DNA of 64,000 nucleotides from Escherichia coli (lineage in GTDB: Bacteria > Pseudomonadota > Gammaproteobacteria > Enterobacterales > Enterobacteriaceae). A program made the position numbers and the translations under genes. The DNA lies in NCBI RefSeq assembly GCF_024223415.1, contig NZ_CP100500.1; one strand, 5' to 3'. Positions 8,454 to 10,381 of the stretch are shown piece by piece. Position 1 is the stretch's first letter. Every line of letters starts with the position of its first letter. The notes under the pieces are model-generated. The model ran no database searches. It saw nothing but the letters and a program-made list of their open reading frames with translations, and was not told the DNA's origin.

Positions 8454-8921
8454 TCATCGAAGGCATTGCGTCCTGATGTATTCCTGAAGCGTTCTCAGTG
8501 CTGTTTGGTCGCGGATAATTCCGTCCCGGACACCGAGAACGTTTCGTCCAGCAACTGGAGAGAGTTCGACGGTGGCATCATTGCCCATGCCGGAGGCGCT
8601 GGAGGTTTCGGCTGAGGATGGCACAGGGCATTTTCCTTTGACGAGCACCCTGCCACCATTATCAAGCTTGCGCCGAAGAGCATCATTTTCAGCTTTCGCA
8701 TCAGCTAACTCCTTCGTGTATTTTGCATCGAGCGCAGCAACATCACGCTGACGCTGCTGCATGTCAGCGATGGTGGCGGTCGCCTGCTTCAGCTCACTGA
8801 CTTTTTTATCACGTTGTTCTTTGTAGGCTATGGCGTTATCACGGTAATGATTGACCGCCAACGACAGGCAGACGATGATGCAGATAACCAGAGCATAAAT
8901 AATCGCGGCGACTCTGCTCAC
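8454..8921 (-). CDS. Rz i-spanin
   Basis: GTG at 8921 overlaps endolysin TGA (GTGA); N-terminal TM segment then coiled-coil-like region; contains embedded Rz1 frame. Confidence 0.7.
8495..8701 (-). CDS. Rz1 o-spanin lipoprotein, embedded in Rz in alternate frame
   Basis: ATG at 8701; [19 protein letters not shown] lipoprotein signal; Pro-rich [16 protein letters not shown] typical of Rz1. Confidence 0.7.
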
Positions 8922-9451
8922 TGATCTATCCCCCAACAGGCTAATGCGCTTTCCTGGTCACGACGAATAACCTGTCCATAGCAGTTATTTGAACGGATAC
9001 GGCAGTCACGCCCACCATCCTTTATCCACCAGCGAATCGCCTCGCAGGCGCCTTTTCGATCACCGGCATTAAGCCGCTTATAAAACGTCGACGGGAAACA
9101 CTTACCGGGGCCAATGTTATAGGGACAGAATGACGCAATACCCGCTTTCTGTGGTTCGGTCAGAGGTACTTTAATATTGCGCTCCACCCATGCCAGTGCC
9201 TTATCACGTTCAATAGCGTTAACCTGGTCGCATTTTTCCTTCGACAGCTTCATTCCGGGAAAAACGGGTTTTCCATCCACCATCGTGGCACCCCGACAGA
9301 TGGTCCAGATGCCGGACCCATCGCGGTATGCCGTTGTGTGGTTACCCTCTTTTTCGTCCAGAAACTGATCAAGTATCTGAGGAGCAGATGCGCCAGCACC
9401 AATCAGCGCCAGAACGGCAGCCGACAGGCCGTATCTGATTTTTGCGTTCAT
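8918..9451 (-). CDS. SAR endolysin (T4-lysozyme-like GH24 muramidase with N-terminal signal-anchor-release segment)
   Basis: 177 aa; Gly/Ala-rich N-terminal segment [16 protein letters not shown]; E-x8-D-x5-T catalytic pattern ([16 protein letters not shown]). Confidence 0.88.
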
Positions 9452-9574
9452 GTATATTTATCAGGATCTAAAGGTTTATAACCCTGGATATATCAGGTAT
9501 ATAATCCAGTACCAGCATGTCTCATAAACATACCCGTTCAGGAAAACCAAACGACAACAGATGAGGCTTCAGAA

Positions 9575-9952
9575 ATGAACAGTAAAGAAAATTTGCGCAG
9601 TAGATTTTTGCAACTAATGACAGAAAAAGTTAAATCAGCGCTACTTCCACTTATGGTGGATAATAACGAAGCAACGAGCAGCATCCTTGCAGACCCTTAC
9701 GGTAAACTCTCGCATAAAACGCTGGATATTATTATGAGTGCATTAACACCCCGTATGCTTCAACACCTGAAACAAGATATTAACGCATGGGTGAATGAAG
9801 AATTGAGCCCCCCCTGTTCATGGGACAGACATTATGCATGGCAGCAAAAAATGAGGATTTTCAATTCATTATCACTAAAGTTCAGAGAACCGAAACAGCG
9901 TCCCTTCCCTCTGGAATCAGACAAAAAACAACCTGATCCCACAGGCCCGTAA
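9575..9952 (+). CDS. Hypothetical protein (125 aa), opposite-strand moron between holin and endolysin
   Basis: ATG ORF in visibly AT-rich segment; TATAAT-like hexamer upstream (~9508); no homolog recognised. Confidence 0.5.
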   Translation: MNSKENLRSRFLQLMTEKVKSALLPLMVDNNEATSSILADPYGKLSHKTLDIIMSALTPRMLQHLKQDINAWVNEELSPPCSWDRHYAWQQKMRIFNSLSLKFREPKQRPFPLESDKKQPDPTGP

Positions 9953-10108
9953 TATTTTGAATACCGTGATTATTGATATCACAATGAAAGCTATTCCGCA
10001 CAGTTATGCCCTGCTCCCCACGGGGCATGCCTCATGAAACGTTCCGGGCGTTTCATGTTCCCGGATTTTGTTAAAAGGTATATTATCCCCTCACTCCCGG
10101 GATATTCG

Positions 10109-10381
10109 TCATATTTCTTTTGGTGCCTTTTTCGCAATCTCAGCCACAGCATGTGCCGTAGCCGGAACATTACCGGCATTAGTTCGTTCCAGAATTTCGA
10201 GCAATATGCGGGTTCGTTTTTCCTGCTCCCGTTTGTTAAGGCGATAAGTAAGAACGCCAAGAATGATACTGAACGCCACGCCGATAATAAATCCCCAATC
10301 CTGCAGTGACAGGCTGGCAAAGAACGCAACAAGTCCTGCGCTGCCGTATGCAGCGTTACTGTATCGTTCGTCCATTCTCAT
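10109..10381 (-). CDS. Holin, pinholin-like (two TMDs, first SAR-like), dual-start MRM motif
   Basis: ATG at 10381 and 10375 (MRMDE); AAYGSAGLVAFFASLSL and WGFIIGVAFSIILGVLTY hydrophobic segments; immediately upstream of lysis genes. Confidence 0.75.
   Translation of the reverse strand: MRMDERYSNAAYGSAGLVAFFASLSLQDWGFIIGVAFSIILGVLTYRLNKREQEKRTRILLEILERTNAGNVPATAHAVAEIAKKAPKEI

Follow-up and report, generated by a model that had tools for sequence, protein, structure and literature searches.

A 64,000-nucleotide stretch of Escherichia coli contig NZ_CP100500.1 (RefSeq assembly GCF_024223415.1; hereafter the window) carries the lysis segment of a Q-dependent late operon in a lambdoid prophage. 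Our analysis indicates that the holin and endolysin genes of this segment were imported into a prophage whose heads are those of phage 21. In kind, the cassette is an ordinary lambdoid lysis set and known biology: a class II dual-start holin, an anchored GH24 endolysin with a putative signal-anchor-release (SAR) N-terminus, and an embedded spanin. The holin, a 90-residue member of holin superfamily II, resembles S21 of phage 21 without falling into its Pfam family, and the set as a whole probably acts as the phage 21 set does. All lysis genes lie on the minus strand and are transcribed in the order Q, pR', tR', two tRNAs, holin, spacer, endolysin, Rz/Rz1, TonB_C lipoprotein, cos and heads. The elements of the cassette, including the one open reading frame (ORF) on the opposite strand, are as follows.

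10109..10381, minus strand: class II holin, 90 amino acids (phrog_1350, 3e-29)
9452..10108, no strand: spacer of 657 bp from holin to endolysin (from the coordinates)
9897..10108, no strand: recombination junction, 212 nt (homology breakpoints on both sides)
9575..9952, plus strand: opposite-strand ORF, 125 amino acids (phrog_1853, 5e-41)
8918..9451, minus strand: GH24 endolysin, 177 amino acids, putative SAR N-terminus (PF00959, 1.4e-24)
8454..8921, minus strand: i-spanin Rz, 155 amino acids (PF03245, 6e-31; PGAP coordinates agree)
8495..8701, minus strand: o-spanin Rz1, 68-residue precursor, inside Rz (PF06085, 3.8e-21; phrog_3198)

Origin of the head and lysis modules

Phage 21 was compared directly with the window, using its curated genome (OL657228.1, CPT annotation) as reference. 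Window positions 5948..1 match nucleotides 783-6730 of phage 21 with 96.1% nucleotide identity, the match starting just inside the large terminase gene, while positions 8137..6728 match its right end with 96.4% identity and comprise a hypothetical gene, the TonB_C protein and cosQ. This right-end block and the left end of phage 21 (window 6727..6687) join at the cosN of the window. The Pfam assignments of the head module (Phage_Nu1, GpA_ATPase/nuclease, Phage_portal_2, Peptidase_S49 as protease/scaffold and HDPD as decoration), together with cosN, are those of lambda-family heads and packaging. In contrast, blastn searches at a word size of 9 revealed no nucleotide similarity between the holin and endolysin genes and phage 21, and among the lysis genes of that phage only the 5' half of Rz could be aligned, at 86%. 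We therefore regard the heads as phage 21's own, and as lambda-family by Pfam, and the holin and endolysin as apparent imports.

This picture comes close to inverting the mosaic proposed in a sequence-only reading of the same DNA, in which lambda heads had been joined to a non-lambda lysis module. Because phage 21 itself joins a pinholin/SAR cassette to lambda-family heads, the combination is in fact unremarkable. The label 'phage-21-type' given to the cassette in that reading is right as to kind (a dual-start holin, an anchored endolysin and a spanin) and wrong as to identity, given the lack of nucleotide similarity to phage 21 in holin and endolysin. The interval assigned to it, 8918-10381, does contain the holin and endolysin, but leaves Rz/Rz1 (8454-8921) outside and encloses the 657-bp spacer with an ORF that had gone unmentioned.

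The relatives of the individual genes suggest how the cassette came together. In nucleotide sequence, the genes for the endolysin and Rz are 94% identical to those of PhiR40_1 and mEp460, where an S21-type holin and YdfR precede an R of the 177-residue type (R177) and Rz. The R protein of the window is 93-98% identical to those of the lambdoid and Shiga toxin (Stx) phage cassettes of this type. The block made up of R and the opposite-strand ORF is 85% identical to the E. coli contig L007, and this similarity ends at window position 9896; the gene order in L007 is S21 (identical to that of phage 21), a 191-residue gene, the opposite-strand ORF, R177 and Rz. On the other side of the junction, similarity to the 90-residue holin genes of PhiR46_1 and UPF_BP1 extends from 10394 to 10109 and ends exactly at the holin stop codon. 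Relatives of this holin normally sit directly upstream of R21-type endolysins. We propose that a 90-residue holin of the HP1/S21 superfamily II has taken the place of both S21 and the YdfR-like gene in a cassette composed of S21, a YdfR-like gene, the antisense ORF, R177 and Rz. The locus illustrates cleanly how exchange can follow gene boundaries.

The resulting unit of holin, junction and antisense ORF was found with at least 99% identity in 19 of 5,426 complete E. coli genomes, most of them from chicken or chicken-meat isolates, and in no record of the phage collection. Since it occupies 22 places in these 19 genomes, three of which carry two copies, we argue that it is a working unit that is spreading.

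One segment between the two phage 21 blocks departs from the pattern. Nucleotide similarity to phage 21 is missing across positions 5949-6686 (minus strand), which hold cosB, the small terminase gene and the first ~75 nt of the large terminase gene; the small terminase subunit shares 40% identity with gp1 of phage 21, in its C-terminal part only. The segment is a packaging-specificity swap, like the classical difference between lambda and 21.

A dual-start holin of the 90-residue family

The topology of both holin and endolysin was deduced from hydropathy sums (Hessa dG, 17-residue windows) and from homology. The holin ORF begins with MRMDERY, which provides an M1-R2-M3 dual start. In an alignment of 21 family members the motif M1-[K/R]2-M3 is kept in 20, with M3 invariant, M1 nearly so and position 2 always Lys or Arg. 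The N-terminal net charge is 0 in the long form and -1 in the short form, and an extra N-terminal positive charge is what turns S21-68 into an antagonist (PMC9025707). We designate the 90-residue form starting at M1 the putative antiholin, and the 88-residue form starting at M3 (position 10375) the putative pinholin.

Two transmembrane domains (TMDs) are predicted. TMD1 (AAYGSAGLVAFFASLSL, residues 10-26) is weakly hydrophobic, with a sum of +2.6 kcal/mol, whereas TMD2 (WGFIIGVAFSIILGVLT, residues 29-45) has a sum of -0.8 kcal/mol; no third TMD was detected by these sums, the next best segment reaching +12.3 kcal/mol. Gly, Ala, Ser and Thr account for 59% of TMD1, in comparison with 60% of S21 TMD1 and 65% of the SAR domain of R21, the phage 21 endolysin, and for 33% of TMD2 (residues 29-46). 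TMD2 contains a glycine zipper formed by G34, S38 and G42, of which G34 is invariant in the family and the other two vary in the three most distant members; the equivalent zipper of S21-68 has been implicated in pinhole formation (PMC9025707). Profile alignment with the S21 family by hhalign (probability 72%, E 3.4e-5, 46 columns, 43% identity) placed the two proteins in the same register, so that M3 of the holin coincides with M4 of S21 (the S21-68 start) and G34xxxS38xxxG42 with G40xxxS44xxxG48, and the TY..N motif behind TMD2 is likewise aligned. In pairwise BLASTP the identity is 38% over 53 residues (E 3e-5).

The family to which the holin belongs is formed by 90-residue proteins of Enterobacterales prophages (phrog_1350), and when 1.8 billion representative proteins were searched with a profile, only 53 relatives were returned. 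Many of those with 72-78% identity carry a precomputed match to PF16080, and some are named 'HP1 family phage holin'. Remote relatives match PF16080, PF04971, PF16082 and PF10746 (the T7 holin model) simultaneously, which led us to place the family in a continuum of holin superfamily II. When 50,697 phage records were searched by tblastn with the holin at E <= 1e-3, no S21-type gene was recovered; a sequence search of the PDB gave no match even at E 10, and NCBIfam none for the holin, Rz1 or the antisense ORF. Taken together, the holin appears S21-like in every feature that can be read from its sequence, yet it lies outside the P21-S family by the Pfam threshold.

An endolysin with a putative signal anchor, and an embedded spanin pair

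The endolysin matches PF00959 (Phage_lysozyme) at 1.4e-24 with 87 bits and contains the triad E35-x8-D44-x5-T50, which is invariant in the alignment with R21-type enzymes. At its N-terminus, K4 and R6 are succeeded by a stretch of 16 residues composed to 69% of Gly, Ala, Ser and Thr, and the first Cys is found at position 52. Identity to R21 is 34% over 147 residues, and HMMER aligned residues 9-174 with full-length R21 (3HDE) at 5.7e-17. The AlphaFold2 (AF2) model of the protein has a pLDDT of 77.5 and was built from a shallow input alignment of 7 sequences. In Foldseek this model was superimposed on full-length 3HDE with TM scores of 0.65-0.72 over 169-174 columns and more poorly on the SAR-deleted form 3HDF (0.49/0.62 over 140 columns). 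Sun et al. are said to have reported in 2009 that the N-terminal segment of R21 is part of the active fold.

Endolysins of this 177-residue type occur in Stx phages and in mEp460. A pinholin/SAR architecture has already been reported for ~99% of Stx phages, and Stx endolysins have been predicted to be SAR proteins (PMC8136144). In the Salmonella phage SPN3UB (L016, 2288-2830), the endolysin is 88% identical to that of the window and reads ASA↓S (the arrow marks the candidate cleavage position), a textbook signal-peptidase site, where the window type has ASA↓P; SAR behaviour may thus not be uniform across the 177-residue family.

We also observed that the 177-residue enzyme has 8 Cys, in comparison with 4 in R21. 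The extra pairs C109/C118 and C150/C157 lie in or near segments (residues 109-157) that are inserted with respect to R21 and have low AF2 confidence, and they may form periplasmic disulfides. Because the N-terminal anchor has no Cys, disulfide caging of the P1 Lyz type is unlikely. Immediately before the endolysin start, an A/T-rich block (9452-9477, minus strand) follows the consensus AACCGATAAATCCTGATAAATATCC-ATG across the aligned loci; it is invariant in E. coli and Stx-phage loci while its flanks diverge, and no recognisable Shine-Dalgarno sequence was seen in it.

The spanin genes follow without a gap, the GTG start of Rz overlapping the endolysin stop codon (GTGA). Rz has an N-terminal TMD (hydropathy dG -4.1) and is 59% identical to phage 21 Rz. 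Rz1 is entirely contained in Rz, in the +1 frame at an offset of 220 nt; its N-terminus, MRKLKMML, agrees with the annotated o-spanin of phage 21, and a VAGC lipobox with Cys19 and Ser at +2 is followed by a mature protein in which 8 of 50 residues (16%) are Pro. The sequence-only reading had described these parts accurately, namely the MRM dual start and two TMDs of the holin, the first weakly hydrophobic, the Gly/Ala-rich N-terminus and E-x8-D-x5-T triad of the endolysin, and the Pro-rich lipoprotein Rz1 embedded in Rz. The alignment to S21 and R21 that it had suggested, once carried out, did not bear out its phage 21 label: the identities are the 38% and 34% given above, and the holin stays below the PF04971 cut-off.

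Proposed lysis pathway and alternative readings

On these grounds we consider it likely that lysis proceeds in the manner of phage 21, from a dual-start pinholin through a SAR endolysin to the spanins, with the membrane steps and the size of the hole deduced from sequence. The holin gene would give products from Met1 and Met3, the longer of which, owing to its extra positive charge (Arg2), would act as an antiholin by slowing the exit of TMD1. The shorter product would build up in the inner membrane as a two-TMD hairpin, until its weakly hydrophobic, SAR-like TMD1 leaves the bilayer and TMD2 oligomerises via the G34xxxS38xxxG42 face, so that small pinholes form and the proton-motive force is lost. 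The endolysin, exported by Sec and kept inactive by its Gly/Ala-rich N-terminal anchor, would then be freed into the periplasm by depolarisation, where its N-terminal segment would refold to become part of the enzyme, as it does in R21, and degradation of the murein would follow; finally, the Rz/Rz1 complex would disrupt the outer membrane. The strongest argument for this mechanism is a natural substitution: in PhiR46_1, a family holin 77% identical to that of the window takes the place of S21 upstream of an endolysin 92% identical to R21, whose start it overlaps by one base, and the overlap in phage 21 is alike. Further support comes from UPF_BP1 and SPN3UB, in which members of the holin family are paired with R21-type and R177-type endolysins, respectively.

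Several observations weigh against this pathway, and most of them would fit a class II holin whose holes are large and non-specific and whose exported endolysin partner needs only depolarisation. TMD1 is clearly more hydrophobic than that of S21 (+2.6 versus +6.5 kcal/mol), and the charged cytoplasmic tail, at 44 residues, is three times as long. The Pfam thresholds are not reached either, the holin scoring 19.6 bits against PF04971 (P21-S; E 9e-4; gathering 26 bits) and 22.4 bits against PF16080 (HP1 holin; gathering 28.8). Moreover, the four models matched by its remote relatives include that of the T7 holin, PF10746; since T7 gp17.5 also belongs to superfamily II and serves a cytoplasmic lysozyme, membership in the superfamily leaves the hole size unfixed. 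The P1 SAR endolysin, for its part, works with a canonical holin (PMC9025707), and the literature searched yielded no experimental test of any member of the 90-residue family. However, the 59% Gly, Ala, Ser and Thr of TMD1 is like that of known SAR domains, and the segment is less hydrophobic than the SAR domain of R21, a domain known to leave the bilayer. The glycine zipper has kept its register with S21 TMD2, the family stands in for S21 right before an almost identical R21, and in none of the 8 family-member loci that were read is the holin paired with an endolysin lacking a hydrophobic N-terminus. We consequently judge large holes to be unlikely.

The nature of the endolysin N-terminus also bears on the pathway, because a cleavable Sec signal peptide would leave the enzyme free in the periplasm and under some other control. 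The segment has the classical n-h-c layout, with an MNAKIRY n-region, an AGASA c-region and small residues at (-3,-1) in sites such as AGA↓S, and the SPN3UB homologue reads ASA↓S; as far as sequence goes, such sites keep cleavage in play and thus count against a retained anchor. There is also the precedent of T4 RI, whose supposed SAR domain proved to be cleavable (PMC8385771). The (-3,-1) rule was nevertheless dropped as a discriminator, since R21, a proven SAR endolysin, has just as many candidate sites. A proline, Pro24 in the window protein, comes right after the best AxA site there and in all aligned E. coli and Stx homologues, both HMMER and Foldseek align the N-terminal segment with full-length R21, and residues 11-30 of the AF2 model form short broken helices (pLDDT 86-90) rather than a single long helix, all of which makes a cleaved signal quite improbable. 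A further objection concerns the cassette as a whole: the 657-bp gap, with its opposing gene and several hairpins, uncouples holin and endolysin, and in a decaying prophage it could have cut the endolysin and spanins off from late transcription, leaving a non-functional recombination scar. The rarity of the arrangement (19 of 5,426 complete genomes, none in the phage collection), an IS66 insertion in the terminase of the prophage in one carrier genome, and an antisense ORF that lacks its usual stop codon and is a pseudogene to PGAP would all suit a scar. Yet none of the four lysis ORFs is truncated in comparison with its family, the window has intact terminase, portal and head genes, and the same opposing gene stands upstream of R in Stx2 phages whose genome records are complete. 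It is established for lambda that terminators are read through by Q-modified RNA polymerase. Together with the recurrence of the unit in 22 places at an identity of at least 99%, twice over in three genomes, this leaves a scar very improbable, and the pinholin/SAR pathway is the reading we retain.

The spacer and its opposite-strand gene

The only long ORF in the spacer, at 9575-9952 on the plus strand, belongs to a family (phrog_1853) whose members normally have 104 residues; in the window a Glu codon stands where the stop usually is, and the protein is thereby extended by 21 residues to 125. Homologues with 46-79% identity lie directly upstream of, and divergent from, the 177-residue R gene, and the same place and orientation were found in Stx2-86, Stx2_12E129 and several E. 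coli contigs (including L007 and L008). With a dN/dS of 0.14-0.30, the ORF is a real gene under purifying selection. The AF2 model of its product is a five-helix bundle (pLDDT 78) for which no Pfam or NCBIfam match and no informative structural neighbour were found, a Foldseek search against BFVD giving nothing below E 0.88. PADLOC likewise matched neither this protein nor the TonB_C protein, the 50-residue ORF downstream of Rz or the holin, and a link to defence systems is absent on that account. We had considered independent mobility of the antisense ORF and dropped the idea, since the two contigs in question (L011 and L013) carry R/Rz gene fragments by blastn and are decayed prophages.

The gene is probably a moron. 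A role as a lysis regulator, whether through transcription that opposes late read-through, through antisense RNA to the holin message, or through a helical product acting on holin or endolysin, seems to us a long shot; were it true, the forms acting through transcription would silence leaky expression of the lysis genes in lysogens. The promoter scan found none for the antisense ORF. By eye, a perfect TATAAT with a poor -35 is present at 9500-9505, conserved in the E. coli loci and not in the Stx phages, and we leave it unproven. Terminators are not in excess in the spacer, with 5 predicted and 3.2 expected from shuffles.

The 212-bp junction that separates this gene from the holin had no match in the phage collection, searched in distant mode. 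Its predicted RNA fold has a z-score of -3.48, with 1 of 200 shuffles as stable, and it includes a perfect 9-bp hairpin (CATGAAACG...CGTTTCATG).

Control region upstream and genes toward cos

The remaining features of the operon are listed in the order of transcription.

11161..11856, minus strand: late antiterminator Q, 231 amino acids (PF06323 Phage_antiter_Q, E 1.4e-90; same annotation in a 99.9% identical E. coli locus)
11149..11177, minus strand: candidate late promoter pR' (TTGCAA-17-TATATT), overlapping the 3' end of Q (consensus scan, 9/12 matches)
11071..11097, minus strand: intrinsic terminator tR' (terminator scan and sequence reading)
10797..10950, minus strand: two tRNA genes (ARAGORN, Rfam RF00005, PGAP)
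10386..10428, minus strand: RNA hairpin with the holin Shine-Dalgarno sequence in its 3' arm (fold energy versus shuffles)
8314..8466, minus strand: 50-residue ORF (PGAP hypothetical protein)
7495..7821, minus strand: TonB C-terminal-domain lipoprotein (PF03544, 3.8e-13)
6716..6727, minus strand: cosN (GGGCGTCGACCT; one mismatch versus lambda cosN)
436..6503, minus strand: packaging and head module, with small and large terminase, portal, S49 protease/scaffold and decoration protein (Pfam)

The position of the candidate pR' agrees with that of the annotated pR' of phage 21, and the order pR', tR', tRNA and holin is the same in both. The terminator reads AAAACCCGC-CCACAA-GCGGGTTTT and continues into more T's. 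One tRNA has the anticodon CAT (Met by ARAGORN, Ile by PGAP) and the other is Lys-TTT; with RF00005 scores of 72.5 and 44.4 bits, these two were the only elements above threshold in the Rfam scan. Sub-threshold matches to isrK/isrJ, small RNAs of Salmonella Gifsy-1, extend across pR'-tR' (~23-25 bits, gathering 37-50) and are consistent with a short pR'-tR' transcript.

Closer to the holin, a GGAGG Shine-Dalgarno sequence is buried in the 3' arm of the hairpin at 10386..10428, upstream of both start codons. The 91-nt stretch that contains it has a minimum free energy (MFE) of -28.7 kcal/mol (z -2.81), and none of 200 shuffles was as stable. Smaller hairpins containing the Shine-Dalgarno sequence occupy the same position in three other holin loci and one S21 locus, none of them significant alone. 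Hairpins that sequester the Shine-Dalgarno sequence are known for the dual-start genes lambda S and S21; the one described here looks like an sdi-like element and could set the ratio of antiholin to holin.

Downstream of the spanins, the 50-residue ORF shares 13 nt with the end of Rz, encodes a single hydrophobic segment and is conserved at the same place in PhiR40_1. The TonB_C lipoprotein is 96% identical to CPT_21_73 of phage 21 and forms a moron between the lysis genes and cos, from where it could interfere with TonB-dependent uptake. PHROG 1267 calls its family 'Rz-like spanin', an apparent mislabel.

Significance and comparison with known systems

The locus leaves the understanding of phage lysis unchanged, and its use is of a more practical kind. 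As a matter of annotation hygiene, a two-TMD dual-start holin beside an anchored lysozyme makes 'phage-21-type' an unsafe label when it is given on that pattern alone. The 90-residue branch of superfamily II lies between the P21-S and HP1 Pfam models and, as it substitutes naturally for S21, offers a variant with which to ask which features (loop, tail length or TMD1 hydrophobicity) pinholes need. The small conserved gene in Stx-type lysis cassettes may also merit experiment.

Phage 21 shares with the window Q, pR', tR' and tRNAs, a class II dual-start holin with GxxxSxxxG in TMD2, an anchored GH24 endolysin (E35/D44/T50), an embedded Rz1 and, downstream, the TonB_C lipoprotein, cosQ, cosN and heads at 96% identity. 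In contrast to the 71 residues of S21, the window holin has 90, of which 2 form the periplasmic loop and 44 the tail, and its dual start is M-R-M rather than M-K-S-M (71/68). S21 and R21 overlap, whereas holin and endolysin are 657 bp apart in the window, which also lacks bor and differs in its Q protein and tRNAs.

Haemophilus phage HP1 is related through Pfam, in that relatives sharing 77% identity with the window holin are assigned to PF16080, the family of HP1 Hol; Hol itself was not detected when the window holin served as tblastn query (E <= 1e-3). The founder of PF16080 (TC 1.E.7), Hol has been found by experiment to behave as a pinholin: it kills the cell while beta-galactosidase stays inside, and the endolysin with which it is paired is of the SAR type (PMC7312051). 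It differs from the window holin in having 78 residues and no dual start, and an N-in/C-out topology has been reported for it upon overexpression (PMC7312051).

Among the lambdoid and Stx cassettes, mEp460, PhiR40_1, Stx2-86 and L007 possess a true orthologue of S21 (PF04971) together with a YdfR-like gene, where the window has the 90-residue holin and its unique 212-bp junction instead. SPN3UB pairs a distant member of the holin family (33% identical) with its R177-type endolysin. The closest counterparts of the holin are in PhiR46_1 and the Salmonella phage UPF_BP1, with 77-78% identity and the same dual start; there, the holin gene overlaps that of an R21-type endolysin of 165 or 162 residues, a different one in UPF_BP1, with neither spacer nor antisense gene between them.

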